From Owenia fusiformis (Eukaryota): 64,000 bases of DNA. The notes beneath the pieces were generated by a model that was given only the letters and a program-made list of their open reading frames with translations, made no database searches and was not told where the DNA came from. A program made the position numbers and the translations under genes. The stretch spans positions 5,394,001 through 5,458,000 of the forward strand of contig CAIIXF020000001.1 of the NCBI GenBank assembly GCA_903813345.2, written 5' to 3'. Within the stretch, counting starts at the first letter, position 1; the number at the start of each line of letters is the position of its first letter. Below are positions 1 through 55,402 of the stretch, piece after piece.

Positions 1-2172
1 AGACCCCTAGTGAAGAAAATGAAAGAAACTATAAAATATATAAAGCAAGGTTCAGAGCTATTTTGAGAGCTGTAGAAAAAACCCACTATCGGAATCAATT
101 TGAAACTGCATCTGGAAATATTAAACAAACCTGGAATATTATCTCTGACATTTTAAATAGAAAAAAACTTCATACAGTGGTTCAAAACGAATTTCTGGTC
201 GATGGTATTGCAGTAAATGATAAAAAGTTGATTGCCAATAAATTCAACTCATTCTTTTCTTCAATTGGATTAAAATTAAGCTCTAAAATTCCAGAGTCAA
301 ACAGAACACCAAATGAATATATTAGTAATATGGGACATTTTGAAAATAGATTTCACTTAACACCAGTTGATGAAACAGAATTGTCATTATTAATACAAAC
401 TTTGAAAGACAAGGCAGCATCTCTTGATAATATTAAACCGATTATTGTAAAACATGCAAAAAATGAACTTATACAGCCTTTACTTTTGATATTCAATAAA
501 TCCTTCCAACAGGGAATTTTCCCGGATAAACTCAAAATAGCCAAGGTAACACCAATTTTCAAAAAAGGTCAAAAAGACAATTTCTCAAACTATAGACCAA
601 TTTCAGTCTTGCCAGTTTTTTCTAAACTTCTAGAAAAACTTATTAACTTTAGGCTCTGTAATTTTATCACAGAAAACGAAATATTATATATACATCAGTA
701 TGGCTTTCAGAAAAATGTCTCTACCTTTATGGCAATCTTAACTTTTGTTGAAAACATACGACATGCGCTGGAGAACAATGAATATTCGCTTGGTATTTTT
801 TTAGACTTGTCTAAAGCCTTTGACACCATTAATCATAAAATCCTTCTAGATAAATTAAATTTTTATGGAATTCAAGGGTCTGAACTTTCTCTTTTTAAAT
901 CATATCTAAAAGATCGAAAGCAAGTTGTATCATATAACAATATTGACTCTGATTTACAAAGTATATCATGCGGTGTGCCCCAGGGCTCAGTCCTTGGGCC
1001 GACATTATTCATATTATATGTAAATGACATGTTTAAGGTTTCCAATATTCTTAAAACCGTAATATTTGCTGACGACACTAATTTGTTGGCCTCAGATAAA
1101 GATTTGAAATCTCTAATAGAAAAGGTTAATGATGAACTTGATCTTATGGACGATTGGTTCAAAGCAAATAAATTGTCAATAAACTATTCTAAGACAAAAT
1201 TTATCTTGTTCAATAAACAGAAACGACAAATCTTTAGAGATATTAAAATTGATATGTCCGGGAAACAAATTGAAAGAGTAAAATCTATCAACTTTTTAGG
1301 TGTCATTGTTGATGAACATATTACCTGGAAAGAACATATTAAACATATAGAAGCAAAAATATCCAGAACAATTGGTCTCTTATATAAGATTCGCCACCTA
1401 TTGAATAAAACAAGTCTTTTGGCAATCTATAATTCCCTGATATACTCACATTTAAATTACTGTAATTTAATCTGGGGTGGCCATAGCAATGCTCATACAA
1501 ATGAGCTGCATTCTCTACTTCTATTTCAAAAGAGATTCCTTCGAATATTAGACAACCAGCCAAGAATGGCACATTCAGCACCTCTCTTTAAGAAGTACAA
1601 CATTTTACCTGTAAACCAGGTGTATGAATTTAATGTTTCGAATTTTGTCTATTGTTGTATTTACCAGGAACCTGTTTATTCAAAACTATATAATGATTAT
1701 TTTAATCAAAATGAATATTTTCACAATTATCCTACCAGAAGAAGTCATGATTTACATGCTAGGGCTTACAAAACAAAAATAGGGTTATATTCAATCAAAG
1801 TACAGGGTCCAAGAATCTGGAATTCTATCTCAGATCATGTCAGATTTTTGCCTTCATTACTTCAATTCAAAATGACTAGAAAGAAAAACTTAATTGCTGA
1901 AATATAATTATATATTGTCACCTCATCTACCTTTCCATCCATACATTTTTTCCTAAACTGAAATAGAGTTAACACACATTGGCAGCCACAACTCACCACC
2001 ACTAGCCATAAGTTAGATGCATACATATGCTATCAATATGTATAGTTATTATTAAATTTTCATTTTTGTCACAAAAACAACTTCATACACTTGTTAAAGT
2101 GTCAGTTGATGTATAATTTATGTATCATAGTTTGACAATAAAGTATGTAACTAACTAAAACTAAAACTAAAA
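1..2172 (+). mobile_element. 3' part of a CR1/L2-group non-LTR retrotransposon; 5' end outside the window
   Basis: RT ORF ends at 1907, followed by a 3'UTR with AATAAA (~2137) and a (CTAAAA)n-like tail to ~2172. Confidence 0.85.
63..1907 (+). CDS. LINE ORF2 reverse transcriptase, N-terminally truncated by the window edge
   Basis: Motifs NYRPIS, QYGF, DLSKAFD, GVPQGSVLGP, FADD, FLGV in a 614-aa stop-free frame. Confidence 0.92.
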   Translation: MRAVEKTHYRNQFETASGNIKQTWNIISDILNRKKLHTVVQNEFLVDGIAVNDKKLIANKFNSFFSSIGLKLSSKIPESNRTPNEYISNMGHFENRFHLTPVDETELSLLIQTLKDKAASLDNIKPIIVKHAKNELIQPLLLIFNKSFQQGIFPDKLKIAKVTPIFKKGQKDNFSNYRPISVLPVFSKLLEKLINFRLCNFITENEILYIHQYGFQKNVSTFMAILTFVENIRHALENNEYSLGIFLDLSKAFDTINHKILLDKLNFYGIQGSELSLFKSYLKDRKQVVSYNNIDSDLQSISCGVPQGSVLGPTLFILYVNDMFKVSNILKTVIFADDTNLLASDKDLKSLIEKVNDELDLMDDWFKANKLSINYSKTKFILFNKQKRQIFRDIKIDMSGKQIERVKSINFLGVIVDEHITWKEHIKHIEAKISRTIGLLYKIRHLLNKTSLLAIYNSLIYSHLNYCNLIWGGHSNAHTNELHSLLLFQKRFLRILDNQPRMAHSAPLFKKYNILPVNQVYEFNVSNFVYCCIYQEPVYSKLYNDYFNQNEYFHNYPTRRSHDLHARAYKTKIGLYSIKVQGPRIWNSISDHVRFLPSLLQFKMTRKKNLIAEI

Positions 2173-2529
2173 AATAGATTAGAATTTCTCAAATCGCAGC
2201 CCATCGATTTTTAAAGAATTGCAATAAAATACAGCAGAACTTCTCACCTTTATGTCGTAAACATTTAAACAAAGAGGCCACGAAAATCAAAACCTCTGCT
2301 GTCCTGGTTGGTTAAAGTGCAAAAACGTCGCCACATTTATGTAAATGAGCCAAATTACCGGGGCCCACAAACAATTGTGTGCCCAAAATTTTTGCAGTGG
2401 GCCTTTTTAGGTCAAATTATCAAAAATGGGCATTCAAAGTTTTTTGATTTGAAATGTACACCCCCCCCCCTTGTTAACTTCTGGATTCGCCAGTGGTTAT
2501 GATCACAAATCTACAAGTTATTCTTTACT

Positions 2530-3512
2530 CTCTCTCGCGAATAGGCCTACGGGCGTTTATTTTGCACAGGGCGTTTATTTGAAAGAATTTTTAATAAACG
2601 CCCATGGGCCTATATTAAGAGGGAGAAAACAATTTTCCAAGGAGGATAGGCGTTTATTTAGAGGAATAGCTAGGGGGATATTATCGATTGTATAGTTGAC
2701 ACATGGCCTTCATACTCACGCACTAGTATGATCACGAACGTGGGCAAAAACGTTGACCAATATGTGACCTCATTTTTATTAATCATTTGTACTTGAACGA
2801 CATTAATCACGTATTACCTTACATTATGTACTATTCGCAATTTCATCCCTTTTCTCGAATGTTTTGCCAACTGGGCATTTATTTGAAATAATTTTTAATA
2901 AACAAATTTATATTGGAAAGTTAATCCAATAGCCAGCCAATTTACCTTGAAGGTGTGAAATATATGAATAGCATCGTGAATAGCCCTATTAAGATAGGCT
3001 AGGCTAATTCTGTTAAAACTATACTCATATTAATCACGTATTATTTTGGTAAATAAATGTCATATTTTGTTAAATTAAAAGTGTTTAGCATAAACTTCTC
3101 TAGATAAAACCAATATGATTTAATCTTTTAGAATTAATTCACCTAACTTTTTTACAATCAATAAATTCAGAAAATTACTTAACATTTCCGATTTATATCT
3201 AGTTTCTAATTTATCCCTAATTCTTTCAAAATTCATCAATATCATAATGAAAGGTACATCTAATTGTTTTTATAGATATTTAAATATGGTGGGGTCGAGT
3301 TGACTAAGGGTTGAGTTGACCAAGGGTTGAGATGACTTGGGGTCGAGTTGACTAAGGGTTGACTTGACTTGGGGTCGAGTTGACTAAGGGTTGACTTGAC
3401 TTGGGTTGAGTTGACTTGGCGTTGAGTTGACCAGTTACCTTTTTAAAGAGGGAAAAACCTTTTCATACACCCCACTTTCAAATAAACGCCCATGGGCCTA
3501 TTCGCGAGAAAC
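2530..3512. mobile_element. MITE-like element with terminal inverted repeats, interrupted by a minisatellite-bearing insert
   Basis: TCTCGCGAATAGGCCTACGGGCGTTTATTT (~2533) is inverted at ~3480-3510 (AAATAAACGCCCATGGGCCTATTCGCGAGA). Confidence 0.55.
3290..3438. repeat. GGGTTGAGTTGACT-type minisatellite
   Basis: About 10 degenerate 14-16 nt units. Confidence 0.85.
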
Positions 3513-4182
3513 TAACATCGTATGTGTACAAAATAGATATATATGCCAGCATGTACATATGCCAGCAGATGAACTGGAATCAATATTCAATGTACGTACA
3601 GTACACCTACTAATAAGGTGTGGAACTGTTACAAAGAAACAGTGGAGCTTCGTGTCAAATTGTGTTGATCGTCAAATGGGATGGAATATTATATGAACGA
3701 ACAAAAGGATATTATCTTTAACATTCATGGCACAATTCCAATTATATGTGGTAGCTGGGGGAACTAATACAAACACGAGTTTTACCAAAACAACTGGCCA
3801 CGAGAGATTTTCGAATGATAATTCCCGACTGTGCGCCCGTTTATGAAGAAACTTGAGGTAAGCTGGCGTGGGACATGGGTGAAAATGGTAGATAAATATG
3901 TGATTCAACTTATTAGACCATAAACAGATCGGATAATTATTGTGAATTACGATTTAGATGCAGTTCTATGACCTACCTGTCCGTGATTTCTACTCGAAGG
4001 GGCGGTATTTCTACTCGAAGGCGCGGTAACCTCTACGGAAAACGGCGGTAAGAACGGGAAGGGGCGAATTTGATCCCTACCTGTGATGATTATTCATAGC
4101 TGTTCATAGCATAGGCAATGGACAAAAAGCCAATCTCACATGAATTGTTAATGTTCATCTTCACTTGTCATTTATTCTACAG

Positions 4183-7100: not shown

Positions 7101-10100
7101 TGCTAAATTTCGGTTTTTCGAAATTTTTCGGCTATTAATTTTTCTGGATTTGTGAGCTCTCAAAATGTTTCCAGCTTCTTTAATTCTTTGATTTAAATCT
7201 TTTAAAATCCAAAATGAAATTTAGGAAACATTGTCTTTTAATTCCAACCTTGTATTGTCCAGCATTGGACAAAATATTGTCAACATATTGACTGAAATAT
7301 ATTCGTGGGAGATTCGTGACTGCTATATTCCATGAATTAGAATTATTGGAATTTTGCGTCTATTATATTTCACGAATTTTACTGAAACACATTGATACAC
7401 TGGTAAAAATAGTTGAATTTAATCATATGGCTTGTGTTTCCAGCAGGTGGCATGTCCCAGAGCAATGAAGAATGGGATTCCAACACAAAGACAAAGTCCC
7501 AGAATTTTGATGAATTGTTTACAGAGACACAACAGAAGAAAACTGCAGCCATTAAGAAACAGACTGCAAATTCAACATCAAAGAATCTGTGGCGTACTGA
7601 AGCTGAGGTAATATTGCATCTTTTTGATAAATGTACAGTAATGTATTTCTTGACTTCACAATTGTGCACATTTAGAATGTCATCATAATCTTTTCAGATA
7701 GCATCAGGTTTAAGATAAAACATTTTCCCCAAAATCACGGAGTGCGATTGAAAGATTTGTCTGGTATTGGGAAGCATGCTACTTTTCATAAGAACACCAA
7801 GAAAACTTCATCAATTAATTTTGAAGCAATAGGTTTGGTTATACCAAAGAAAATCACCTACTCCATGCAATGGATATATCATTTGTAGATAGTTTTAATT
7901 TCTGTTTGAAGTCCAATAATGCTAGTGTACTCTAAAATGGCACAATATAGTGACATGATAATATTTTCATATATTTAATTTATGCATTGGGTCTTTTAAT
8001 TTTTTTCATAAAAAGTTTTTTTGAACTGCTAGAGTTTGAAAATTTAAAACCTATCATATTCATAGGAGAAACATTTGAAAGGGAGTTGTCAAGGGTATGA
8101 GTTGTCTAGTGGTTGAGTTGTCAAGGGTATGAGTTGTCTAGGGCTTCAATTGTCTGGTGGTTGAGTTGTCAAGGGTTGAGTTGTTTAGTGGTTGAGTTGT
8201 CAAGAGTATGAGTTGTCTAGTGGTTGAGTTGTCAAGGATTGAGTTGTCTTGTGGTTGAGTTGTCAAGGGTATGCGTTGTCAAGGGTTGAGTTGTCTAGTG
8301 GTTGAGTTGTCAAGGTATGAGTTGTCTAGTGGTTGAGTTGTCAAGGGTTTAGTTGTCTAGTGGTTGAGTTGTCAAGGGTATGAGTTGTCTAGTGGTTGAG
8401 TTGTCAAGGATTGAGTTGTCTGGTGGTTGAGTTGTCAAGGGTATGAGTTGTCTAGGATTGAATTGTCTGGTGGTTGAGTTGTCAAGGGTATGAGTTGTCT
8501 AGGGTTGAATTGTCTGGTGGTTGAGTTGTTAATGGTATGAGTTGTCTAGGGTTGAATTGTCTAGTGGTTGAGTTGTCAAGGGTATTCGTTGTCAAGGGTT
8601 GAGTTGTCTAGTGGTTGAGTTGTCAAGGTATGAGTTGTCTAGTGGTTGAGTTGTCAAGGATTGAGTTGTCTGGTGGTTGAGTTGTCAAGGGTATGAGTTG
8701 TCTAGGATTGAATTGTCTGGTGGTTGAGTTGTCAAGGGTATGAGTTGTCTAGGGTTGAATTGTCTGGTGGTTGAGTTGTTAATGGTATGAGTTGTCTAGG
8801 GTTGAATTGTCTAGTGGTTGAGTTGTCAAGGGTATGAGTTCTCTAGGGTTGAGTTGTCTGGTGCTTAAGTTGTCAAGGGATGAATTGTCTAGGGTTAAGT
8901 TGTCTGGTGGTTGAGTTGTCGAGGGTATGAGTTGTCTAGGGTTGAGTTGTCTGGTGGTTGAGTTGTCGAGGGTATGAGTTGTCTAGGGTTGAGTTGTCTG
9001 GTGGTTGAGTTGTCGAGGGTATGAGTTGTCTAGGGTTGAGTTGTCGAGGGTTTGAGTTGTCTAGGGTTGAGTTTTCTGATGGTTGAGTTTTCAAGGGTAT
9101 GAGTTGTCTAGGGTTGAGTTGTCTGATGGTTGAGTTGTCAAGGGATGAATTGTCCAGTTATTGAATTGTCACCTGGTTATTTGAAATAGTACAATAGTGC
9201 AGTGAATGGGCAATGCTTTTTGTAATTCTCTTTAGGACCATGACTTCACTTACCAAAGTTCAGGCTACACAGGTCCAAGACGAGCAAAAACAGGTGAAGA
9301 CTCCTTGGCATCAGAACTAATTGTTACTCACAGTTCTAGGACCAAAGAAGACCCCATACAAACTGCAGCAGTTACATCAGGGTAAATTGATAATAGGCTC
9401 GAAGCTTAAAGATTTACTGTATGTATGTCACTAGACAACACTAGGCAGGCATGCTTTTTGAAATGATTGCTTTCAACATTTTATACTCTTTTTGTAAACT
9501 TCCTATTAACAAGAAAAAATAAATAGTTAGGTAGTCAAATGCTGGGGACATGAGAAAATTCTTTCATCCAATATGTGTTGATTCCAGGAGCAAGAGAAAG
9601 GGCCAGGCAGTGGATGCTCATAAACACAGGAAAAAGCTAGAAGAGATGATATTATCAGAACAGAAGGCTCAGGATTCTGGTTACTATGATGAGAGAGAAG
9701 AGAAAGACGATGCACTGGAGGTCTTAGGTAATGTTTCAGATGTTTTATCCAATTACAATATTTAGATAAGAGACTACAGGTTCAGTATATGCATACTAAT
9801 ATGGAATATACTGAAAACTGAAAACCCTTGACCTACACCTTTGGCCAAAGACTGACTGTGCATCAAAAAATATAATTTATATTAGTGTTTCAGTCATTTC
9901 TCATTGTAAGTACATTGTATAAGTTTCAAGTTTAAAAACTGATTAGTTTTGGGGTATTCCGGGTCAATTTTTAAGGTGGCCATTTTGGATTAAGGGCTGA
10001 AAATCCACAATGTTCACATTAACATTTACCCAGAATGACAGTTCTAAAACTTGGAACTAATTAAGAACTTTATTACATGTATTTACAATGAGAAAATGGC

Positions 10101-16100: not shown

Positions 16101-19100
16101 ATTAAGATTGAACTCATAATATTGTGAGCACTTAGGTGGTGACATTTTGTCATTTTAATGCCTTGTTGTTCTTAGTGGTGTTCTCTTATTTTTGCATTAT
16201 GTACGCCGTACGCATTAAGGCATCAAAGTTGTACTGTAATTTGACAATAAATAATTTTGTATCAGATCATCAATTTAAATCTTTTTGGAAAAACAGTTTA
16301 CTGTGTAATCCTATGCTGTTTAGATATAATTCATGAAAAAATCAGCCAAACTCAATAGCCGTCAATGCTCTGAAAAGGGGAAATTCAATTTAAATTAATT
16401 CAAGTATTATTTTACGCGCTGCAGGTACAAGGTTTGGCGAGCTACCAGACTTTGACTATGAGACTGATCGAGATTTCCCAAGTCGACCACAATCATCAGT
16501 GCGTTATACACCAACGCCCCCTAGTGATGTGGAGGATTTTGAGAGTGTATCACAAGTGACAGGTCCTAGGAGACCTGTATGGCATAATGAGGTGAATTTC
16601 ATAACCAGTTTCTATCACAGTAATTTGTTCTGCTTGTTGTTATAAAGGTAGATATCACAAGTTTTTTTGATTTGTTTTTTGAATAAGCCATTTATTTTGA
16701 ATTTGGTGGATTTATTGACTCCCTTTTCACTTTTTTACATTTTAAGCTATATTTATGTATATTTGGCTTCCTGTTAATTTTTTGAGAAGTACTAAAATTG
16801 AAAAATTGAAACGCTTGAATTGAGTAGTTTTCCAATACATCACTGTTATATGAATTCTAATATCTGATGGACAAGTGGATACTGGTTCATATCTTTGTAT
16901 AGATTGATATACGCTTTATGGGTCATTGGAATACATGACAGGCATCTTTAGCTCTATTTCTTCCATTTTCACCCGCCTTGCTACTTTAATTCCTGCAATG
17001 CGTTTATTGAAATCTTTACCAGTACATGTAGTTCTCTTTTTGTCGAATTATTTAAGGGCATCAGAGTTTTTTCTTTACACGCTACAGTTGTGCGGCCATA
17101 TTCATCAAAGGGGGGGGCAGAAACAGGGACTTTCCCTCCTCTTGTTCAAAAGATAATGAATATTTTTTTGTTTCAACAGGACTCTGATGCAGATACTATA
17201 ACACCCAGGAAGGGAACACATATGTTTTCCAAGGTTGTAGACACGGATCAACATCCTGAACAACCCATGTATGCTGGGTAAGCATGTATTTTATTTCAAA
17301 GTCGAACTAAAGGCTGTGTAATTTGCTAGTCTTTCTTAGACATAAATCTGACAATAACTTGTGAACAGGGCACTTAGATGATAGTTTCAATGAAAACAAT
17401 GCAATGGACTAGAATTGTGTTAAAATAAGAAATAAAACTCCATATATTGTCTCATCTAAATAATTGAAATAAACAGTACTTATTATCAATTCAAATCCTG
17501 GTACATTTTAGCTGGCGAAGAACTTAGTTAACAGATTTGATTCAAATTCAACATGCTGATGCCTTTGGGACATAGAACTCCGCTTAAGAAAGAAATTTCT
17601 AATGATTAATGAATTAAAAGTGGCCACCATTTTCATGAAAAAATACAATTTTTGATAACCGAAATACCAGTTGGAGGTCCCATGCAGTGTCTCATCATAG
17701 ACACTGTGGCGGTCAGATGGAGAAATAACCAAATATTGGTGAAAATAGTCCCCTTTTTAACCTCTTGAATCCCAGGCTCTAAAATTGGCATGAAACCAGA
17801 GAATTTTTCATTTTTTGCCACCTTTTGACATTTTATTACATACCTATACAACTTTAGATGCTCAGCTTAGTAAAATTGGACGGCAGTGATCATTTCTACA
17901 CGTTTTAAAACAATTTTTTTGTAAATTGGATGAAAATTGTTCAAATGAGAGCAATTTTTGTGAAAAATTTTGTGACGGATTTTCTCGTCCCTCTGGGCAC
18001 CAGTCTTATTTCATTTGTGACGGATATATCCGTCACTCTGGGTATTCAAGAGGTTAATCAGTATATTCATCCAATTTTGTTATAGCTTATAAAATATTTA
18101 TTCTTTTACATTATTATTTTGTAAGAATATTTCGGATACGTGGTCTATCCATACCTTGTAATTCTTTTGACTGTAATCTGATATTTCAGTACGAGATCTC
18201 CAATGTCTCCTAAGAGGGCCACAGGAACCCCTAGTCGATCACGTAGCCCTGGGAGGAATGCCCAACTGTCTGGCACTCTCCCTCTACGCTCTGTAGACAT
18301 GCGCAGCAGTTATTCTAACACCCAGGTAGCAGATGATGAGAAGTCCCTTGAGTTTATGAGGAAGACATGGAGTCCCAATACACATTCCTTTGACACTGAG
18401 GTGAGTCCCAATGCACATTCCTTTGACACTGAGGTGAGTCCCAGTGCACATTCCTTTGACACTGAGGTGAGTCCCAGTGCACATTCCTTTGACACTGAGG
18501 TGAGTCCCAATGCACATTCCTTTGACACTGAGGTGAGTCCCAGTGCACATTCCTTTGACACTAAGGCGAGTCCCAATGCACATTTCTTTGACACTGAGGT
18601 GAGTCCCAATTCACATTCCTTTGACACTGAGGTGAGTCCCAATGCACATTCCTTTGACACTAAGGTGAGTCCCAATGCACATTCCTTTGACACTGAGGTG
18701 AGTCCCAATGCACATTCCTTTGACACTGAGGTGAGTCCCAATGCACATTCCTTTGACACTGAGGTGAGTCCCAATGCACATTCCTTTGACACTGAGTGGA
18801 GTCCCAATGCACATTCCTTTGACATCAAGGTGAGTCCTAATGCACATTCCTTTGACACCGAGGCAAGTCCCAGTGTCATTTGACTCCAATATTGGGATTT
18901 TGCCAAATAGTCTGGCAGAAATATAGGGTATTTTGACATTCAATCATTTTCTTCGGATTACAATGTTTTTTTAACTTATCAACATGAATATAGGATTGGG
19001 ACCTCAAAACCACCGGATGCCGGTGCGGCACCCTTGGGCAACTCTCTACAGAGCATTTCTTATACCCCCCTGATAAAATATACAGGGGGTACTATAAGAC

Positions 19101-22100
19101 ACCCTCATATCTCAGATACTGATAAGTATATTAACTTGAGATTTACAGGAATTAGTTTTAGTATGATGCTTGACATGTATGACAAAAATCAAGAAAAAAT
19201 CTTAATCCGTTGCTATAGCAACAGTAACAGAACACTATTTGTTACCGTAGAGATGCATTATTTTGCTGATTTTCAACATTTCTTCATATAGTTGATTCTT
19301 AAACTAGTATATAGTATTACACTAGTATATAGGACACTGCATATTTTATATTTAGTATATACATGTATATCAAATGAAATCTAATGAATTTATACAGTAG
19401 TGAGGTTGGCATATAGTCTAGACTTTGGCATTTAGAACATGCATCATAATAAAATCTAATGTAATTATACAATAGAGAGGTTGGCATAGTCTAGATTTTG
19501 GCATAATGTCTAAATTTTATAAGCATTGGCTTTCCTCATCTGAGCAATCAGACTACTGGGGGGGGCCCTGTATAGCTTCTGGGGGCCACTGGGGACCATC
19601 GTATAGCTTTTAAAGGCACTGTGAATATTTGATTTAACAGTGAATTCAATTGGATATTGAAGCTTCGAGCTTTGTTGTTAAAATAGCTCTGTGGGTTCTT
19701 CATAAAATAATATGGATTGGTCTTGTAATGTAAAAAAGACAAGATTAACACAGAATTAATATACTCATAAAACTGTACTTTATTCCAAGTAAAAGACTAA
19801 ACATGTACAATTACACTCTTCAGTATAAAATAAAACTGTTCAAAGATAAAGAAAGAATGAAAATGAGATTAATAAGATGAAAAGAAATGATGTGTGATGT
19901 TCCCCCCGATCTAACTCTCTACTGAATGAAACCCAAAATTTCTCTTAAATACCCCCAAGTTATAAAAAATGAAAGGCAATCCCTTACCCTACAAAACCTA
20001 TAAGAAACCCATAGAAAGATGGCAGCACAGTACGGTGAATCAACATGAAAAATGCTATACAACCCCCACCCAAATAAAATGACAATTCTCCTGACATTGT
20101 ACGTACTAAAAAAACTGAAAATATGCTAAATCTAAATAAATGTATATGATATTCTAACAATGTCCTATATGAATGTTTACTAACACAGTGCCGCATACAT
20201 AGTTCGTGTATAATCCATATCCATATCCAATATCCATATGAAATATCCACGCAGAGTTCGTGCAAATATCCTTGCTTCATACGTAGTTCCTGTTGATAAA
20301 TGTCGTTATAATAAACCATAATAAGTTCCGATTTTATAATCCGCGTATCTAGTCCTGGATCCAATGCGATGCTGTAATACGTGCATCTAGTCCACGATGT
20401 AATATTTTCGAATCCAAAATATGCACCGTCTTAGTAGTCGAAATAATATCCATAATCCGTATATCACATGCACGTCCGCATCGTGTCCATTATCGAATAT
20501 GTCCGTATCCTCGCTGAAGAATCCATAATAAAATATCCATTTCCTTGTAGCAGTGTTCATAATAAACGTTTTCGTTGGAGAAAAGAATTGTTTATAATAA
20601 CAGGAGATCGTACATCTTCAGCTCCTTCATCAGTTGTCGAAATCCTCTGTGGCTCCACTCCATCCGAAATCCGCGTCGTCTGCATCTCCATAAGACATAG
20701 GCATCGCCTTCACAGGTCATCTTCATCGCTTCTTCACGGTTAGGTAGTCGTCATCTACTTCAGGTCGTCATAGGAAATCGCTTACTGGGATCCCGGGCAA
20801 TTAATTTTTTAATTCTCAAAAAGTTCTCCAAAAGTGTCTTTAAGAAACATTTTTTATTAACATGTCTTTAACTTGCTTTTCTATGTGACATAAACAAGTC
20901 TTCTTCGTGTTCTAAACTCTTCATGAATTTAATTTTCTTCAAGACATCAATTTCTCTTCATTGACAAGTAACTAGTCTTTCTATCTCTTCAACATACAAA
21001 CTTTTCACTTGACTTGTCTTTCATGACTGAGCGTTTTTCAACTCTTCAACTCTTCTAGCAAATCTTCAACTTCAACTCTTCATGAAATTATTTACATTTT
21101 CTCTCTATTCTTCAAAATGATCTCTGATTGTTACTTGTGAAACTTGTCTTTATCTTTAAAATGCACTGAGTGGTTAGTCTTTTAAAATAAAAGATGCAAA
21201 TTGCTTACGAACAGTAAGAAAGAATATAAATATGGCTTAACATGTTTTCCATAATAGGCAGGACAAATTCTAAAAAGTAATAACACAATTATACATATCT
21301 AGCGATTTAACATTAACATCAATAATGCATGCAACATGGGTTTCAGACTCTGCCAAGATTACTAAAACCTTTTCTTCAGGTCGCCCCCTCTTGCTAGGAC
21401 TTTGTTTCCGAAAGTAAATCAGTAACACCTCAGTGCACAATAGCATTTTACTTTTGATTTTCCAAAGAATTCTATATTTTCATACTTAGCGCTATGTATT
21501 GTACAAATACAAACAAATTGCTATATTCAAATATAAATGACTAATCTCTCATGTATTCATTTCACTAAACCTGATGATTGATGGCTGTCATAACAAAATC
21601 TCGTTGTAGGATCCACAGTTTGTACTTTCTTACAAAACTGAGAAAACCACTTGCCTGGGCTTCAATTCAATTCTCTATTGAACCCTAAAGGGGCAGGGAA
21701 AGTATCGCAACAGACTTTTGACAGTTGATAATTTTTTGTGAGTGGTTTCTGGCTGTAAAAAATAAATGCTTGTGAAAGGCGAATCTATAATCTTCAAGAA
21801 ATGTTCAAAGAATAGTTTCCAGATCAATTGGATTATCTTATAATCCATGTTTAATCCACCCATCAACAAGCTTTTTCAAAATACATTCGTCATTTTCACC
21901 ATCGTCCCTCATTTTTTTTACAATTTTTCATGCAAAGTTACATTGTACTTGAACACATGTTTCATCACGTAAAATATATAAGGAACTCCATGAAGTTTGT
22001 TTTTGAGTTTTTTTGGAAAAAATGAACCTCTTAAAATGCATGTTTACAAAAATAATTTAGAAGCGATGTAAAAGATGGCAATGTTTTTCAATAATAACAT

Positions 22101-25100
22101 GCATAGGTGCGTGAATTACTCATGTGTGTTGTGTTTTAATCCTGCATTCACTGACTGAGTTAGCCTATTGAAAAACCATAGAGATTAATAATACAAACAG
22201 TAATACCATGAATACTTCTACTTCAAGCTCAAATAGAGCTTTCAGGGTCCTGTGTTGAAATACTAGATCACCTTATGTGCATGAATTTTTGATTTGTAAG
22301 GATCAAGAGAAAGCATTAGTGCAAGCAATTAAATGAAAGCATCATCCGAACATCACTTGAAAAGTAATAATGTGGTGAAAAATTGCAGGATGTTGACAGA
22401 AAATATGGCTAGGGGAGAGTGTCGTCTCTCAACCCCCCCCCCTCCTCCCCCTCCCTGGGCACGGGACTAATACATGTGATATGGCAAAGTCCAATTCATA
22501 GATTAAGTTTCCCTGGCAGTCTTGTTGGCATTTTTATTAGAGTTCATGTTTTGTTTATGTGATGGGTGAGTGGAAGACCCTTGGGTGGCAATCAAATATA
22601 AAATGTTTTCTAAAATATATATTTGAAATACTTTGTGTATGTACAGTCACAAACTCTAGGCATCATTAACTAGTAGGGCAACACCCCAACTCAATTGAGT
22701 GAATGTGTAAACCATATATGGAACAAAAAACATTACACAAAACAAACTCAGCATGCAAACATGTAAAACTGGCATGGCAAAACAATAGATTGTGAAACTG
22801 AATAATAAAAGCACATACGACTTGAAAACAAGGGATTAATAAACACTGGTGTAAAGTAATGATGGGACCTGTTAAAATGACATGAATGGGGATTGGTCAA
22901 TATGAATAGTAGAAATATAATTTGTGAAAATTTTACATTTAGTATTGATCATGAACATTAGAGAGGTTAAGTACACAGGCTCGTAGCCAGGTAGAGTGGG
23001 AGAGATAAAGGGAGCTGCTGCTCCCCCAAGAGATTCTTTCAAAATGATGCAGTTTCTCACCAATCTGAGCACTTTTCGCATGATTTTTTAGCCAAAACTG
23101 TCAAAAAGTTCCTCCCTAGGCAAAAGCTTTGCCCTTGGTAAAACTGCTCCTATCCCTTGGTAAAAGGTGGCTACAGCCTGTGTAAAACATTTGTGTGAGA
23201 ACTTGAATGTGAACGAGTACTGTTATGACCCCCCGTAATGATGTCCATCTCTCAACTGGTTTAACTGGGGACCATTACACCAATTGGCATTATATCAATC
23301 AGGCAAAAAGAGGCCAGTGATGTGAAAAAAGCCAATAGCACAGTGTTATAGCATGATGGTCACGCCACCTCTGAAAACGAGGTTGGACAGCTACGTTCAC
23401 TGATTTATTCAATAAAATGGCCGCGATGGAAGAGAAAACTAAGCTTGGCGCATTATTTTCTACTACTGTGTATCAATCAATTTCGCTTAACCGTCCATCA
23501 ATTGTTTACACTACCGCAAATTCAAAATACATCATTATGGCTTGAGTAGAACATATTAGGTAGTTTCCAATGCTCAATTGGCTTTGTATGATCGTATATA
23601 GGTTACATCTATATACCACAAGGTTTTTAGGCAATGTGGACCATGCCCTAACAAAAAAATGAACAAATTACTAAATTTTTATGTAGTTTTGAATTTCAAA
23701 ATCGACAGTTTTTCTCTTATTTCACGTTATCCCCGGGCATCAATTTGCAAAGACTACGTTCAAAATATACATTTCTGAATGTATCACCGAATGCCATTCT
23801 TACATAAATCGTTCATCCTTTCATTGATACACAGTAGTAGAAAATAATGCACCAACCTTAGTTTTCTCTTCCATCACAGCCATTTTATTGGGTAAATCAG
23901 TGAACGTAGCCATGCAACCTCGTTTTAAGAGGTGGCGTAACCGTCATGCTATAACACTGTGGTTACCGTCCATAGAATTCATACTTCGATAGAAGTCATA
24001 CGTAGTCGTCTAACGACATTGCGTTTGAAACCTTATTATTTACAATATACACCACGTTCCTGTTCTGGATTTGTCATTTTATGCCTTGTTTATAAACAGT
24101 TAACTTACACTTAATATTTTGAGTGGCTCATGTACTGAGAAAACACGAGAATGAACCAAAAATGATAAAGTTTGATATCTCAGTCGGTAGGTTTACAGCT
24201 TATATTCTGTTTCTTGTAGACCACCTGGCAGATTTGACCCAGTCTTTATAACCATCCATATATACGTCACCGAATGAAAGTAGTTTAAAAGGAGATCTTA
24301 TCTGCGAATATTGCCTACAGGCGAGAAAGAGGACATGCTGCCTTTCCCATCCGCCATTTTTTGTTATCGTTACCGCAAAATTTTGCAAATCGCCTTGACG
24401 TAACCGTCATGCTATAACACCGTGAATAGGGGACCATAAGTTTACACATTCCATGTGTACGTTCATCAGAATAGTGCGATCTTAACCTCCCTTAAAATTG
24501 AAATTGTTGGCTCAACCAATAGACTCATTCTATGTTTGTTTATATTTGTTCACATTAATATGGAAGAAAATCTGACATTTTGCTAAAAAGATGTTATTGT
24601 AAATCTTAGAAATAATGATAAAGGTATTATACACAACACACTCAATGGTATTGATTATGGTTTTCAGAGACTCTCAATAGGGACCTTAAGCTTGTAATGT
24701 TCACAACCTAAATGTGAATGGAAAATGTTTAGCGATGCATTTGTGTGGGTGATTGGTCATAGGTTGGTGTTTCGATTTTATATGCAAGCTTAATCTCCCT
24801 AATGTTAACATTAAGGTAAGAGTGTATGTTACTCATAACATTTTCTTAGGATAACATTTCTTGAATTGATGGATATGCAAAAAATATTCTTAGCATATCA
24901 TCCTTCATTTTATTATTTGAATAATCAATCTGGAGATATACTCAAATAAGGAAGTGTGTTATAACACATCATCATATAGAAACATGTCCAATGTTTTTTC
25001 AGAAGCTGGATCAAAATATTTGTCTTACTAAAATTATTGGCAAAGGTATGATATACTAAATACTTGTACTGTATTTATGATTTTGATAGCACTGAATACC

Positions 25101-28100
25101 TCGTGAATCATTACTGATAAACAAGATACAGAAAACCTGTTCAAAGTAAATGCTATAATAAGGACATCATAGAAATTATCATAAAGAGAGGTATTTAGAA
25201 TTTCTTAACAACTGACACACACAGGTTTAACTGCACTCAAACATTAAACTGTCAACTTGACAGGTATTCAGAATTGTTTGGGAAATGCTGAGGTTATGCT
25301 CCATTGATTTAAACAGGGGATCAAACAGCAGGGGGTCAAACAAGTCCAACCATTCATTTATGAAAACATTTTGAACTAACTTTATGGCACACTAATGACA
25401 TCTTATATGAGTGTGCTGTACTAAAACCATAGCCCCATTGGATCCCCTTATATTGGATTATCATAATCCTAATCCAGAAGGAGTTCCTTATACATTTTAA
25501 GTGATGAAACATGTGTTCAAGTAAAATGTAACTTTGCATGAAAATTGTAAAAAAAAATGAGGGACGATGGTGAAAATGATGATTGTATTTTGAAAAAAAG
25601 CTTGTTGGTGGGTGGATTAAACATGGCTTATGAGATAATCCAATTGATCTTCCTTGAATTTTTCTTAAAGATTATACATTGGCGTTTCATATGCATTCAT
25701 TTTTATACAGCCAGAAACTACGAGAAAAAAATTATTTACTGTCAAAAATCTGTTGCGATACTTTCCCTCGTTCTTTGACAATTTATGATCGTCATCATAA
25801 CATTATCCAGTTGCCGCTCGGGAAATAACCATTTATTTCGAGCATGTACATGGCAAAATCTCATAACAAATAGTGTGGAATAAAACAATAAAAAACAAAA
25901 TCAGAAACTTAAAGACAAGATATCCCAAAGATAACATTATCCCGTCCAGCAGGAATATGTTTCTTGATAGACTAAAATCATCATAATCTTATGATGCAAT
26001 TTCCACAATACACAAACAGAAAAACATGCCATATACTTTTATGCTTTTCGCATCCTGAAAAGATACAACTTGCTCACTGTAAGTAATATTTAAAATTATT
26101 AGCCATTTGATTCCTCTTAAAGTCATAGCAAAATTATTCTCCAACCCTGGTTTATGAGGCCGAGTCTTAAAACAAAACTGCACTAATTCTACATAATACC
26201 GAGTAATTCCAACTAATGTTACTGTCAGTGCACGTGGGCTAACTGATACCTATGATTCGACTTAGATGCGATATCCAAGGATAAATACCAGTTATTCTAC
26301 CCCACTGCTTTACATGTGGATCATTTGTTACCTATGATTCAACTTAGATGCAATATCCAAGAATAAGTAACAACCACAAAACCTCATCTAAAACAACATT
26401 GAACTCTTCTTCTAGCTAACTTATCAACTTAGATGCAATATCCAAGAACACATGACAAGAAACCTAGTTCAAATCTCATAACTTAACAACAATGAATTCT
26501 CTTCGTCTAGCTAACTTATCAACTTAGATGCAATATCCAAGAACGCATGACAAGAAACCGACTTTACTTTTCATCATTTAAGTACCATATAACTGCCAGG
26601 CCTTACTACACGAATGGAATATGAAATTCCATCATAATTTTCTATAACAAACCACCAGTCTCAAACTACCCCCTCCATTTTCATGGAATTTCATATCTCT
26701 TAATAAAACCAGATAAAACGATCCCTATGTGTATTTTCGACAAGCACACGTTTAATTACTGTAAAACATAAATTGTCTTCAGAAATCTCATTTTAAAAGT
26801 TACTTTTTCAATCTTCTCATTATCTTAAATGCTTACTTCTTATTGTTCACTCTTAATTGTTTACTTCTAATTACTTATTTCTAATTGTTTACTCTTTATT
26901 GTTACTTCTAATTGCTTATTTCTAATTGTTTACTTCTTATTGTTACTTCTAATTGCTTATTTCTAATTGCCCGGGCAACCACATATTACAAAAATGACAA
27001 ATCTCATTCATCCATTCAGCGACACAAAACAAACATGCATTCTTGCCAAATACGGATGTTTGACTCTTTCTATGCATAATTAATAAAGAAAAATGTTCTT
27101 CAATACTACAAAATGGTCCTGTTTTCATACTTGAAAGGCTTTACCTCCCCTAAACAATTTCTTTTGCAAGTCATGTTTTCATCCACTAGCCATTAAAATA
27201 TACCTATATGCAATTCCATTGAGAGTTTGAAATAAAAGATCTTTTAAGGTATGCATTGATGACTTTTACTTAACTCTGTATTATGTACTTTTTCCCTTTT
27301 AAATAATCACGAGATAAACAATGCCCATGCAGCACACATTTAACTAACTTACTACTAACCGACTATCTACCCAACTACCTAACTAACTAACTAGCTAACT
27401 AAATATGTTCCCTTTATATTTACTTATACCAGAGACATATAAAATGTTTTATAGGTCTCTGCTTATACACACTATATACATTCTTTGACTAAACAATCAA
27501 TTAATCCCATCCATATCTTGTAGGCGCTCTTCTATTTCTTGCATTTCAATATTGAAGCAAGACTATGCCTTAATAAACCATCCGACGATTTCTTTTCTTC
27601 ATTTTGATTTTCAGGTGAAACCGTGATTTTGCCATCTGTGTCTTTCTCGTCATGGAGACTTACATTTTTATCTGACCAAATCAAATCAAAGTTTTCATTA
27701 TTTTCGTCTTTCTCATCTTCATTTTCCCCAACGGCACCTAACACGACAGAACACCCATTTTCACATTGATCCTTCCCCTCCATATTCACAAGGTATCAAC
27801 TTCTATTTAATGAATGAGGTATAATCTATATGTAATATCAAAACACAAACAGAATCAAGTACGCTTTTATCATCAATACAGGGATTTTTACAAAATACAA
27901 AGACCAAAAACTAGATCTTGAACATTCAAATCAAATATTCTCAATTAATAATTTCGTCTACAAGGTCTAACACCAATTCGGGACTATCTTAACACTATAG
28001 CCACAGCCAAACAAATAGATACGCGCTCGATTTTGCCAATTTTAAAGCAATGCGTCTTAGCATGCACAATTGTAGAAATAAAGGATAGAAAGAAAGTAAA

Positions 28101-31100
28101 AGAAAGTGTTTTTGAAGTAACTAAAACAGGAGCCTGTTACATGAGCTTCTTGTTGATAGCAAATACAGAAATTAGTACAACGCTGAAATGCAAGCGTTTT
28201 CGTATTTCAATTTAAAAGTAACTACAACGGGAGCCCGTCTTCATTACTAAATGATGATTCCCTTAAGAATAGCACGTGTAAACATAAAATATGCTCGACT
28301 CTTTGTCTTCTCTTTGTTCACAAGATCAAGGTAAAGTTACGCATAAATTAACTGAGCGTACACAAACGCAAGATCATTATCAGTCTTTTAAGTGAAGACT
28401 GTCAACTTAAATGCATGCATAAACCCCAGGGCATAAACAAACATTGTGCATAAAGACAAAGTTAATACTTAATAGTACAGTGAAGACAAATACTCTTCAT
28501 TCAAAGAGAATATGAACTGAATATGAACTGAATATGAAGACAAAATCCTAAAGAAAGAGTTGAAGAGAACTAATCTTCACTCTTCGGTATAGAATGAACC
28601 TAACTTAAAAGAGAGAAACGAAGAGAACTAATCTCCGCTCTTTTGTAAGAGTAAAGCTAGATTGAAGATGCGAAGAGAACTAATCTCCACTCTTCAGTGA
28701 AAGTTGATCAAACTTAAAGATGTGAAGAGAACTAATCTCCACTCTTTAATGAAAATAAAAACACTAAAACTGCGAAAAGAATCTCTTTACAAGACAAAGA
28801 CCAATCCCACCGCTGCCACCAATGAAGCTTCGAGCTTTGTTGTTAAAATAGCTCTGTGGGTTCTTCATAAAATAATATGGATTGGTCTTGTAATGTAAAA
28901 AAGACAAGATTAACACAGAATTAATATACTCATAAAACTGTACTTTATTCCAAGTAAAAGACTAAACATGTACAATTACACTCTTCAGTATAAAATAAAA
29001 CTGTTCAAAGATAAAGAAAGAATGAAAATGAGATTAATAAGATGAAAAGAAATGATGTGTGATGTTCCCCCCGATCTAACTCTCTACTGAATGAAACCCA
29101 AAATTTCTCTTAAATACCCCCAAGTTATAAAAAATGAAAGGCAATCCCTTACCCTACAAAACCTATAAGAAACCCATAGAAAGATGGCAGCACAGTACGG
29201 TGAATCAACATGAAAAATGCTATAATATTTTCTCTAACAGTGAAATTTAAGGGTTATGAAACATTTCAGATTGACAACATCATGAATTTTTTGTCAGTGA
29301 ATTTGGGCTTTCTTCTTGGGGCCACTGGGGGCCCTCGTATGGTTTCTGGAGGCCACTGGGGGCCTCTGTATAGCTTCTAAGGCCACCATATAGCTTTTTT
29401 GGGCCACTAGGGGCCTCAGTATAGCTTCTGGGGGCTCCTGTTTAGCTTTTTGGGGACACTGGGGGGCCACCATATAGTTTTTGGGAGCCACCGTATAGCT
29501 TCTGGGGGCACTAGGGGCCACTGTATAGATTCTGGGGGCTACTTTGGGCCCCTGTATAGCTTCTGGAAGTCACCATATAGCTTCTAGGGGCCATTTGGAG
29601 CCCCTGTTTAGCTTCCGGGGGCTACCATATAGCTTCTGGGGGCTACTAGGGGTGCCTGTATAGCTTCTGGGGGCTCCTGTTTAGCTTCTTGGGGACACTG
29701 CATACCATCCTATAGCTTCTGGCGGCTACTTGGGGCCAGCGTATAGCTTCTGGGTGCCATCATATAGCTTATGGGCCTACCATATAGCTTTTGGGGGCCA
29801 CTGTAAAGCTTCTTGGAGCTACTGGGGACCACCATATAGCTTCTGGGGGCTACTAGGGGCCACTGGATATGCTTCTGGGGGCCACCATATAGCTTTCCAG
29901 GGCCACCATATATCTTTATGGGGGCACCAGGGGCCACTGTATAGATTCTGGGGGCTACTGGGGGCCCCTTTATAGCTTCTGGAAGTCACCATATAGCATC
30001 TAGGGGCCATTTGGAGCCCCTGTATAGCTTCTGGGGGCTACCATATAGCTTCTGGGGGCTACTAGGGGTCCCTGTATAGCTTCTGGGGGCTACCTTATAG
30101 CATCTTGGGGCCACTGGGGGCCCCTGTATAGCTTCTGGGGCCACTGGGGTCCATGGTATAGCTTCTGGGGTCCACTGGGGGCATTTTTTATTTGAACCTT
30201 GAAAATTAATCTATTTTGCCAGATTTGGTGGCTGTCGAGGTGGGGTAAAATTAAATTATAATTTTTTTTCAAATTCATGTGACTATTTATCTCTAAAGCA
30301 TCACTTTTTTACCTAGGGAGCATAACCTTTTCAAGAAGTGTTATTTTGGACCACCTTTTTAAAGAAAGTGAAATGTAAAAACCTGATTATTAAGTGATGT
30401 TACCATAGCAACTGAAATGTTAGATATATTACATAAACCATATGATGAATTATTTCATCTTTACTTCTAATCATGTACATTTGTATATAACAGATACGTA
30501 TATACTTCAGATGCTTAAAGAATCAAGAATATGAAGAAAATTATGAAAATCAGCAAACCAATGCATTTCTACGGTAACAAATAGTGTCTATTTCTGTTGC
30601 TATAGCAACGGATTAAGATTTTTTCTTGATTTTTGTCACATGTCACATTGTCATATTTTATCAGGGGGGTATAAGAAATGCTCTGGAGAGAGTTGCCCAA
30701 GGATGCCGCTCCGGCATCCAATGGTTTTGAGGTCCCAACCCTATATTCATGCTGATAAGTTAAAAAAACATTGTAATCCGAAGGAAAGGAGACAATACTA
30801 CTACTACTTCTTCCTGGTTATTATTTCTATCATGTGATGTCCAAAATGACAAGGGATGCAATAAAATAGGTTGTGTTTGATGAGATATTCTACTCCACAG
30901 AGTTGCCATTTTTAAGTTCATTTTAACATTTTTTTTGTTATTTTTAGGAATTACTTTTAAAACAGCGGCACGCATTAAAACAATTGTAGGACACCCACGT
31001 CCCACATACAAACATGCATTTACATGCATTGTCTATTAGAACAATGAATATTACTTTCTTTGCATTAAAACAATTGTAGCACACCCACGTCCCACATACA

Positions 31101-34100
31101 AACATGCATTTACATGCATTGTCTATTAGAACAATGAATATTACTTTCTTTGCATTAAAACAATTGTAGCACACCCACGTCCCACATACAAACATGCATT
31201 TACATGCATTGTCTATTAGAACAATGAATATTACTTTCTTTGCATTAAAACAATTGTAGCACACCCACGTCCCACATACAAACATGCATTGTCTATTAGA
31301 ACAATGAATATTACTTTCTTTGCATTAAAACAATTGTAGCACACCCACGTCCCACATACAAACATGCATTTACATGCATTGTCTATTAGAACAATGAATA
31401 TTACTTTCTTTGCATTAAAACAATTGTAGCACACCCACGTCCCACATACAAACATGCATTTACATGCATTGTCTATTAGAACAATGAATATTACTTTCTT
31501 TGCATTAAAACAATTGTAGCACACCCACGTCCCACATACAAACATGCATTTACATGCATTGTCTATTAGAACAATGAATATTACTTTCTTTGCATTAAAA
31601 CAATTGTAGCACACCCACGTCCCACATACAAACATGCATTTACATGCATTGTCTATTAGAACAATGAATATTACTTTCTTTGCATTCAAACAATTGTAGC
31701 ACACCCACGTCCCACATACAAACATGCATTTACATGCATTGTCTATTAGAACAATGAATATTACTTTCTTTGCATTAAAACAATTGTAGCACACCCACGT
31801 CCAGTGTAGACACTAAGGGGCTGAAACCTGCTGGTCAAAATGATATTACGGACCAGTTGCAATGTTATTTTCCTATACCTAGTGAAAAAATCAACTGGTC
31901 CGTATCAAAAGTAACCAGATAATGACCAGTGGACCGGCTGTTAATGACAACACTGCCCACGTCCCACATACAAACATGCATTTACATGCATTGTCTATTA
32001 GAACAATGAATATTACTTTCTTTGCATTAAAACAATTGTAGGACACCCACGTCCCACATACAAACATGCATTTACATGCATTGTCTATTAGAACAATGAA
32101 TATTACTTTCTTTGCATTAAAACAATTGTAGCACACCCACGTCCCACATACAAACATGCATTTACATGCATTGTCTATTAGAACAATGAATATTACTTTC
32201 TTTGCATTAAAACAATTGTAGCACACCCACGTCCCACATACAAACATGCATTTACATGCATTGTCTATTAGAACAATGAATATTACTTTCTTTGCATTAA
32301 AACAATTGTAGCACACCCACGTTCCACATACAAACATGCATTTACATGCATTGTCTATTAGAACAATGAATATTACTTTCTTTGCATTAAAACAATTGTA
32401 GCACACCCACGTCCCATATACAAACATGCATTTACATGCATTGTCTATTAGAACAATGAATATTACTTTCTTTGCATTAAAACAATTGTAGCACACCCAC
32501 GTCCCACATACAAACATGCATTTACATGCATTGTCTATTAGAACAATGAATATTACTTTCTTTGCATTAAAACAATTGTAGCACACCCACGTCCCACATA
32601 CAAACATGCATTTACATGCATTGTCTATTAGAACAATGAATATTACTTTCTTTGCATTAAAACAATTGTAGGACACCCACGTCCCACATACAAACATGCA
32701 TTTACATGCATTGTCTATTAGAACAATGAATATTACTTTCTTTGCATTAAAACAATTGTAGCACACCCACGTCCCACATACAAACATGCATTTACATGCA
32801 TTGTCTATTAGAACAATGAATATTACTTTCTTTGCATTAAAACAATTGTAGCACACCCACGTCCCACATACAAACATGCATTTACATGCATTGTCTATTA
32901 GAACAATGAATATTACTTTCTTTGCATTAAAACAATTGTAGCACACCCACGTCCCACATACAAACATGCATTTACATGCATTGTCTATTAGAACAATGAA
33001 TATTACTTTCTTTGCATTAAAACAATTGTAGCACACCCACGTCCCACATACAAACATGCATTTACATGCATTGTCTATTAAAACAATGAATATTACTTTC
33101 TTTGCATTAAAACAATTGTAGCACACCCACGTCCCACATACAAACATGCATTTACATGCATTGTCTATTAGAACAATGAATATTACTTTCTTTGCATTAA
33201 AACAATTGTAGCACACCCACGTCCCACATACAAACATGCATTTACATGCATTGTCTATTAGAACAATGAATATTACTTTCTTTTCTCCAGGATGAAGGCC
33301 GTAACATGGCCACACCAGATATACTATCCAAAAGAACAAAAGGCTGGCAGATACCAGCAGATGATTCCGATACCAGTAGTGTAGACTGGGACAAAGGTAA
33401 GCTACCATTTAGTGATTCAGAAAGGTGTTGTTATACCAATTCCTCTGAGACACTTACACCAGTGTTGAGTGGCAATTTACAAGGCACAAAGAAATTAAAA
33501 GGAGAAAAAATTGTGTACATGTTAGTGGTGTTTTTAGAATACTTAAATCAACAGATGTTGTATATGGTGGAAACTTAGACCAAAAAATGAATCATTTGTG
33601 TGGTATTTTATACGCCAACCAGTGTTAGCCATTGGAAAAACATGACATGAAAGTTTTTGACTGTTAAATAAAAAGTTTTTTAAAAAAGATTTTAAGTAAA
33701 TAATAACATGCCTGTTTTTTTATTATTAGCGCTATATTCTTTCTATTATGTTTCATGTGTAAAACCAGGCTTCTGATTTTGTCCAGCAGTATCATTGCTA
33801 AAGCATGAGGCTATTATGTACTTAGCCAGCTCAGCAGTAGGAGATCATCTCAACTGAGATCTTTAAATGCTCCCATGTATATGAAACCGTATAACCTTGT
33901 TTTGTTTTACTTTATCTTTCAGATGGCAATGTGACAGGGCTAAAAAGACATAAACCAAAAACTAAAAGTGGTTTATCTGCAAGCCAAGGATCTAGATCTG
34001 GTTTGTAGTCCTAAATTTTCTTTTGTCATTGTAGTCTTAAATTTTCTTTTGTCATTGTAAAACTAGATAACTTGATTTTGTATTCACATAGCAAGGTGTG

Positions 34101-36783: not shown

Positions 36784-55402
<18,619 letters not shown>

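Follow-up and report, generated by a model that had tools for sequence, protein, structure and literature searches.

A minisatellite at an exon end of the Owenia fusiformis C8orf34 homolog reiterates a 5′ splice site of which the most upstream copy is used in the dominant mRNA

We analyzed a stretch of 64,000 nucleotides from the annelid Owenia fusiformis (hereafter the window; assembly GCA_903813345.2, contig CAIIXF020000001.1, positions 5,394,001 to 5,458,000 of the forward strand), in which a 33-bp minisatellite overlaps the end of an exon of the C8orf34 homolog and carries copies of that exon's 5′ splice site into the following intron. The mRNA that dominates the data uses the most upstream donor of the series, at 18401. 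Most likely, the array is a variable-number tandem repeat (VNTR) that is neutral and may be polymorphic in length. We consider it probable that it is an intronic minisatellite derived from an exon-end founder copy, whose upstream donor is used and whose downstream copies are silent or nearly silent and drift neutrally, under a position rule like that described for F7, and that it is not a dial for protein length.

Donor use at the exon-end array

The peptide encoded by exon 18190-18400 is identical at 70 of 71 positions to residues 399-469 of P0002 (BLASTP), an annotated 534-aa protein of O. fusiformis. Residues 4-297 of P0002 match the Pfam family DUF5586 (PF17824; E 1.2e-22, 81 bits compared to a gathering cut-off of 26.6), PF17824 was present in all 17 matches of a second protein search, and several relatives (from Lineus, Lingula, Babylonia, Patella, and Physella) bear the NCBI name "uncharacterized protein C8orf34 homolog." By sequence similarity, the gene holding the array is the O. 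fusiformis C8orf34 homolog, a member of the DUF5586 family. Its exons lie on the + strand from ~4165 to 34002 (tblastn), and the intron that contains the array is its longest inside the window. Upstream, the exon is joined over a GT..AG intron from 17276/17277 to 18189/18190 in contigs of the runs X8, X5, and X6 (see below). The donor at 18400/18401 and the acceptor at 33291 are both in phase 0, as checked against P0002, and the acceptor exon ends at the donor AAG/GTAAGC at 33397 (slashes mark junctions here and below).

Tandem Repeats Finder reported a single array at 18370-18872 with a period of 33, 15.2 copies, 94% matches, 0% indels, and a score of 880. The array is beyond chance in the 64-kb window, where the unit with up to 6 mismatches occurs 15 times, always within the array and on the + strand, and nowhere else on either strand. 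Fifteen full units are in register from 18368, with unit 0 in the exon and units 1-14 occupying 18401-18862; in unit 0, 3 letters out of 33 depart from the array consensus (TG at 18368-18369 and A at 18380), and the 16th register unit resembles the others in its first ~13 nt only, with 17 of 33 letters different. Twelve of the 15 junctions read GAG or AAG/GTGAGT (18401, 18434, 18467, 18500, 18533, 18599, 18632, 18665, 18698, 18731, 18764, and 18830), leaving 11 GT pseudo-donors after the used site. Two junctions are of the GC type (18566, AAG/GCGAGT; 18863, GAG/GCAAGT), and the junction at 18797 (GAG/TGGAGT) has no donor because unit 13 (18797-18829) starts with TGGAGT, like the exonic unit 0, instead of GTGAGT. 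The frame that enters from 18188 is open up to a TGA at 18881-18883; in the other two frames of the plus strand, nearly every unit is interrupted by a stop.

These results agree with the structural part of the initial annotation. It had described the last 33 nt of the exon and its donor as being repeated 14 more times, which the repeat finder and the unit table confirm, and it had listed the junctions, including the 2 GC-type sites and the donorless one, at coordinates that we reproduced without exception. The stop-free frame up to 18881 was likewise found, the phase 0 assigned to the donor and to the next exon at 33291 is that of P0002, and the label of a C8orf34-like gene was right, given a P0002 score above the PF17824 cut-off and relatives named as C8orf34 homologs by NCBI.

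To identify the donor in use, we relied on public sequencing runs. Twelve runs from the same organism contain 14-25% of the sampled words of 16300-18900, approximately the exonic share, and the contigs of 4 of them (X1, X8, X5, and X6, from three studies, X8 and X5 belonging to study P2 and X6 to study P3) were aligned to 16300-19100. Contigs of X8, X5, and X6 show the GT..AG joints 16589>17178 and 17276>18189 and therefore originate from spliced RNA. In each of these 3 runs, one contig extends without gaps from unique exon sequence (starting at 18259 in X8, 18237 in X5, and 18189 in X6) through unit 0 to 18401. Beyond 18401, these contigs continue with ATGAAGGCCGTAAC... or ATGAAGGCCGTAACATGGCCAC..., which departs from the window at that place and has its sole window match at 33292-33321 (0 chance matches in 100 shuffles). 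As both 18401 and 33291 hold a G, the exons are joined at 18400/33291, with zero extra units. The link between donor and acceptor rests on the loose ends of the contigs and their match in the window, as the aligned stretch stops at 19100.

All 3 spliced runs, from 2 studies, thus join the first donor to 33291 with zero extra units, and the junction contig of X6, with 1933 nt, is a near full-length mRNA. No variant letter is listed in the X8, X5, and X6 contigs at 18380, where unit 0 has A and all other units have G. The same join is seen in the annotated protein P0002, which reads ...WSPNTHSFDTE/DEGRNMATPDIL... (SFDTE/DEGRN). Among the contigs listed for the 4 runs, none carries a junction from a downstream donor to 33291, and contigs drop rare variants. 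No contig of any of the 4 runs lies on 18402-18649, and in X8 and X6 the uncovered part spans 18402-18837, missing cover being no sign of absence, of silence, or of another allele in X1. A search for extra units in transcript-derived proteins returned P0002 as the sole match (1 of 6044 longer candidates, and 0 of 27 shorter ones for residues 399-534) and is uninformative, since the collection seems to be without transcript contigs of this species.

We next consider what could mark the site at 18401. All 12 GT sites have a predicted U1 duplex energy of −10.7 to −10.8 kcal/mol; that of the GC sites is about −6, and that of 18797 is −2.8. Masking of the pseudo-sites by RNA structure was rejected, as the RNA of the array folds worse than all of 100 shuffled sequences (z = +4.13). 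With equal U1 pairing and unstructured array RNA, it is position, and not strength or structure, that marks the used site.

Origin, variation, and coding sense of the repeat copies

According to the explanation that we favor, a tandem duplication of a 33-bp segment would have taken the exon's 5′ splice site along. Because the duplicated segment held this site, 11 GT copies as strong as the donor at 18401, together with 2 GC variants, come after it at a spacing of 33 nt. The downstream copies would be silent or nearly silent pseudo-sites within the 14.9-kb intron, and, by analogy with F7, the first functional donor after the exon would be taken without competition from the identical sites downstream. 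The units retain possible traces of this history. Units 9-12 are identical to the consensus, which suggests a recent internal expansion, and the start of unit 13 suggests that the duplicated segment once took in the Trp codon of the exon. The sequences TGGAGTCCCAAT... of the exon end and GCAAGTCCCAGTG... of the degenerate last unit are similar over 11-13 nt, 33 nt apart, and this similarity could have been the seed of the slippage that began the array.

To assess whether the units are kept as coding sequence, we compared them with their consensus. Units 1-14 display 15 differences, 10 of them distinct, and 2 of these 10 are synonymous compared to 21 of 99 expected without selection. Units 2, 3, and 5 share an AGT (Ser) variant, and units 6, 7, 8, 13, and 14 have private changes. 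Only 1 of the 99 possible single substitutions in the unit creates a stop, and the probability of finding none is 0.86-0.90 for 10-15 differences, so the open frame of the array carries little information. On the minus strand, one frame is open to the same degree throughout the array (18310..18939, 209 aa), and another has a single stop. Changes that destroy a donor have been tolerated 3 times, at 18797 and through GT>GC at 18566 and 18863. Together, these results suggest that the intronic copies drift neutrally and are not kept as coding sequence.

A comparison across orthologous proteins gave no sign of the repeat. A HMMER search returned 88 proteins at E ≤ 0.001, P0002 included, and the 10 orthologs aligned with P0002 have at this place no tandem unit but one stretch of the pattern W-(S/A)-P ... 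D-(T/S)-E/D, which is loosely conserved. The motif SPNxHSFDTE was found once, in P0002, and in none of the other 100, nearly all of them relatives, among 101 scanned proteins (P0002, 98 search matches, P0003, and P0004, the latter two being in no alignment). The period-11 repeats of P0088, a weak match (E 8.6e-4), consist of EPAPSLRRACA at the N terminus and are unrelated to the array unit. Also rejected, as repeat-driven, were the Pfam matches of the read-through peptide P0001 to PCC_BT, NOMO_5th, DUF3622, and Apolipoprotein, three of which had 0 passing stretches and the fourth of which was far under the cut-off.

As a separate observation, the C8orf34-family relative P0018 has at residues ~280-360 about 5 copies of a 14-residue SPEPFQGPERYQTQ unit (SPEPFQ...), placed just before a conserved DDEFESVSQV motif and in a part of the linker other than that of the array unit. 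This repeat is either a coding expansion in a disordered linker or a gene model that reads through a similar array, and this predicted protein serves as an example that the disordered linker can probably tolerate repeats.

The remaining aligned run, X1, informs on the array at the DNA level. X1 is DNA-like, with introns and exons at similar depth (~4-10) and no spliced joints, and one of its loose ends resembles what we take to be a tagmentation adapter. Its haplotype is a different one, as 6 letters vary and 8 nt are deleted within 18082-18193. A 63-nt pure-repeat contig of X1 (18667-18729) has a depth of 118.6 compared to 7.4-9.97 in the flanking single-copy contigs, so that independent reads, too, contain the repeat in multiple copies. 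Its length would equal 33 + 31 − 1, the collapsed length of a perfect 33-nt cycle, if the contigs use 31-letter words. Consensus 31-mers average 5.9 occurrences in the window and the excess in X1 is 12- to 16-fold, contig depth being a rough measure. This difference hints that the array of the X1 sample is longer or more uniform, as expected of a VNTR, although contig depth is too rough for a polymorphism call.

Weighing of the explanations

Several points weigh against silent downstream copies governed by position. The "RNA" label of all 12 runs is a guess, and the RNA nature of X8, X5, and X6 rests on the spliced joints; assembled contigs lose rare variants, and 56 more loose ends lie beyond those listed. 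In X5, the distal array (18650-18837) is covered with bin means of 21.3 and 18.7, compared to 1358-3553 in the exon and 3.48 in a single-copy intron contig, which could represent pre-mRNA or ~1% of transcripts with array sequence; within this cover, the collapsed consensus part is at pre-mRNA level and the unique units 13-14 are a few times above the upstream intron. The junctions at 18665 and 18830 (AAG/GTGAGT) match MAG/GTRAGT at 9 of 9 positions and the used site at 8 of 9. Every downstream site is in frame, so that its products would escape nonsense-mediated decay. Among 5 human precedents, 2 (IFI6 and CBS) use the first two pseudo-sites beside the authentic donor, and the scanning mechanism has been demonstrated in mammalian cells and not in annelids (PMC1557585).

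Limited use of several donors in the style of IFI6 and CBS, with one or both of 18434 and 18467 selected beside the first donor at a low constitutive level to yield isoforms longer by 11 or 22 residues (VSPNAHSFDTE, VSPSAHSFDTE), is in our judgment unlikely. The donors are identical in sequence and predicted U1 pairing, the sites are in frame with products that would be stable, the exon would measure merely 244-277 nt, and rare forms are invisible in contigs, but no such junction occurs among the listed contigs of the 4 runs, each spliced run has a single form, and the annotated model has zero extra units. Two of 5 human minisatellites of this kind do behave in this way (PMC1557585), and the ~5 units of 14 aa in the predicted protein P0018 would fit a linker that tolerates coding repeats; the coding sense of the array unit bears no sign of selection. 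The initial annotation had suggested a length dial, in which donor choice could add 0-14 copies of an 11-aa unit and read-through would give a truncated isoform. In a true dial of this kind, regulation or the allele would govern the use of many of the 13 downstream donors, and the read-through isoform would end at 18881. Twelve near-consensus in-frame GT donors, a frame open to 18881, and the low X5 cover on the distal array are consistent with it. Nevertheless, we hold it to be highly improbable: donor 0 is in the major mRNA of all 3 spliced runs of both studies and in P0002, the copies drift neutrally with an open frame expected by chance (P 0.86-0.90) and matched on the minus strand, relatives have a single copy of the loose stretch and lack the motif itself, the exon would have to reach up to 673 nt, and human precedents stop at the first two pseudo-sites (PMC1557585). 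A ladder of isoforms built from one polymorphic minisatellite in steps of 11-residue SP-containing units through stage-, tissue-, or allele-dependent downstream donors, with the 90-bp array and the inverted repeat described below helping the choice, is very unlikely. As an alternative, the initial annotation held in reserve a neutral VNTR with a single donor in use; this reading is favored by the contigs, P0002, and the human precedents, although rare downstream use could escape the contigs.

Intronic U1 sites have roles in exon definition and in protection from premature cleavage and polyadenylation. The unspliced pseudo-donors might then recruit the U1 small nuclear ribonucleoprotein (snRNP) and so aid definition of the upstream exon or shield the 14.9-kb intron from premature cleavage and polyadenylation. 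This function would be compatible with the preferred explanation of donor choice. Where the gene's longest intron begins, the array provides 11 sites whose predicted U1 pairing is strong (−10.7 to −10.8 kcal/mol), within unusually unstructured RNA (z = +4.1). Set against this are the tolerated donor-destroying changes at 18797, 18566, and 18863, a locus full of other minisatellites without donors, and the lack of a repeat at this place in 10 aligned orthologous proteins, a protein comparison whose reach ends at the introns, and we rate such a function as improbable. That the array or its length arose from mis-assembled repetitive reads is scarcely credible. Near-identical 33-mer arrays are hard to assemble and the contigs of no run span this one, but the DNA-like X1, on a different haplotype, has the 63-nt repeat contig at depth 118.6, and the units differ by ordered private variants typical of real arrays.

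The intron, the window, and known systems

Minisatellites are common at the locus (8083-9154, 29328-30182, and 30972-33283). The one at 8083-9154, a 47/31-bp repeat of ~1.07 kb, lies in the intron between the C8orf34-homolog exons 7440-7607 and 9236-9382. The 90-bp array at 30972-33283 ends 7 nt ahead of the acceptor AG (33289-33290), such that its last monomer covers ~−82 to −8 at the 3′ splice site. Of its 24 anchor copies, 23 instead continue ...TTGTAG/[CG]ACA, a possible pseudo-acceptor. Each end of the intron abuts a minisatellite that overlaps a splice signal, the 33-bp array at the donor and the 90-bp one at the acceptor. The arms of an inverted repeat are 11.6 kb apart in the same intron and could loop out most of it in the pre-mRNA. 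They are part of a dispersed element, and from ~18932 on the depth is very high in all 4 runs. Between 16000 and 34100, we found 0 Rfam matches at the gathering score and 0 tRNAs.

Elsewhere in the window, a ribophorin II gene converges on the C8orf34 homolog, and the long open frames at 39938-41347 may be a decayed intergenic transposon. The coordinates of all features are compiled in the table.

Table. Features of the array, its gene, and the remainder of the window (LINE, long interspersed nuclear element; ORF, open reading frame)
Feature	Position	Strand	Basis or placement
Coding exon, 211 nt, residues ~399-469, end ...WSPNTHSFDTE	18190..18400	+	BLASTP, tblastn, spliced contigs
Unit 0, exonic founder copy, WSPNTHSFDTE	18368..18400	+	Unit table
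Used donor GAG/GTGAGT, most upstream of series	18401..18406	+	Contigs of X8, X5, and X6; P0002 SFDTE/DEGRN
Minisatellite units 1-14, intronic	18401..18862	+	Tandem Repeats Finder, unit table, U1 pairing
Degenerate partial 15th intronic unit, GC-type junction 18863, first in-frame stop TGA 18881-18883	18863..18883	+	Unit table, open frames
Intron with array, 14,890 nt	18401..33290	+	Spliced contigs, tblastn, exon-to-window match
Inverted repeat left arm, 138 nt, 93% complementary to right arm	18944..19081	.	Just downstream of the 33-bp array
Inverted repeat right arm	30653..30790	.	Just upstream of 90-bp array
Second minisatellite, 90 bp x 26	30972..33283	+	Repeat search
Acceptor exon joined to 18400, DEGRNMATPDIL...VDWDK	33291..33396	+	P0002 join, tblastn, spliced contigs
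LINE-like ORF, reverse transcriptase domain, 634 aa, cut by window end	3-1907	+	Pfam
Long open frames of 96, 175, and 149 aa; no Pfam match for two tested	39938-41347	+	Open frames, Pfam
Ribophorin II gene exons, Ribophorin_II N-terminal and third domains	44563-53438	-	Pfam
LINE-like ORF, 1178 aa, intact-looking, Exo_endo_phos + RVT_1	60074-63610	-	Pfam

The array reveals no new mechanism, but it is a natural experiment in 5′ splice-site choice beyond mammals, with 12 donors that are alike in sequence, context, and predicted U1 pairing. As the sites are in frame, nonsense-mediated decay cannot hide the use of downstream donors. The choice of the first donor speaks against simple proximity to the 3′ splice site. 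These properties make the locus suited as a clean minigene or population-genetic system, and they are a warning for gene prediction and variant callers at exon ends that bear repeats. Closely spaced alternative sites are also known from GYNGYN donors and NAGNAG acceptors. Those sites have a spacing of 3-12 nt and originate from point changes, and often both of them are in use. The Owenia array shares with them several close alternative sites and in-frame outcomes; unlike them, it is a minisatellite with a 33-nt period, and one site is used in the dominant mRNA.

The nearest relatives are described minisatellites whose first monomer lies over an exon-intron boundary, of which the Owenia array is a non-mammalian case; no paper on this array was found in a literature search that was not exhaustive. 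As in F7 intervening sequence 7 (IVS7), a unit of 10-100 bp is arranged head to tail (here with a period of 33 and 15.2 copies), and the first monomer includes the exon-intron junction, the exon end being fixed by the spliced contigs and P0002. The most upstream donor is the one in the mature mRNA of all 3 spliced runs and in P0002, rare forms being dropped by contigs.

The statements on human genes that follow are those of Borensztajn et al. 2006 (PLoS Genet, PMC1557585). In F7 IVS7, the first monomer of a 37-bp VNTR lies over the exon-intron boundary and the most upstream site alone is used; mutagenesis in 50 constructs showed silent pseudo-sites and a 5′-to-3′ position rule, explained by "oriented scanning" and exon definition (PMC1557585). 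The Owenia array is similar in its boundary monomer, its identical pseudo-donors, the presence of the upstream site in the mRNA, and the lack of a masking RNA structure, and the taking of the first donor over a 14.9-kb intron fits the F7 rule (PMC1557585). The two differ in that the F7 unit of 37 bp is not a multiple of 3 and is present in 5-9 copies, whereas the Owenia unit of 33 bp is in frame and present in 15, and in that the F7 donor is weak (UGG/gugggu) with 4 bp of the monomer in the exon, whereas the Owenia donor is near-consensus with the whole founder exonic (PMC1557585). Silence and the scanning rule were established with constructs in F7, compared to a silence deduced from contigs in an annelid host (PMC1557585).

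In IFI6 (6-16), the intron 2 minisatellite provides 25 pseudo-sites, and in CBS, the 31-bp VNTR of intron 13 has 15-20 repeats (PMC1557585). Both resemble Owenia in a donor reiterated by a boundary-spanning minisatellite and differ from it in the extra use of pseudo-sites, of which there is none among the listed Owenia junctions, where contigs could miss it (PMC1557585). Only the authentic donor is used in LMNB2 (100 bp x 10-15) and in intron 4 of PDGFA (81 bp x 16-18), and these two, although their units are longer, share with the Owenia array a boundary minisatellite whose authentic donor is the one seen in mRNA (PMC1557585).

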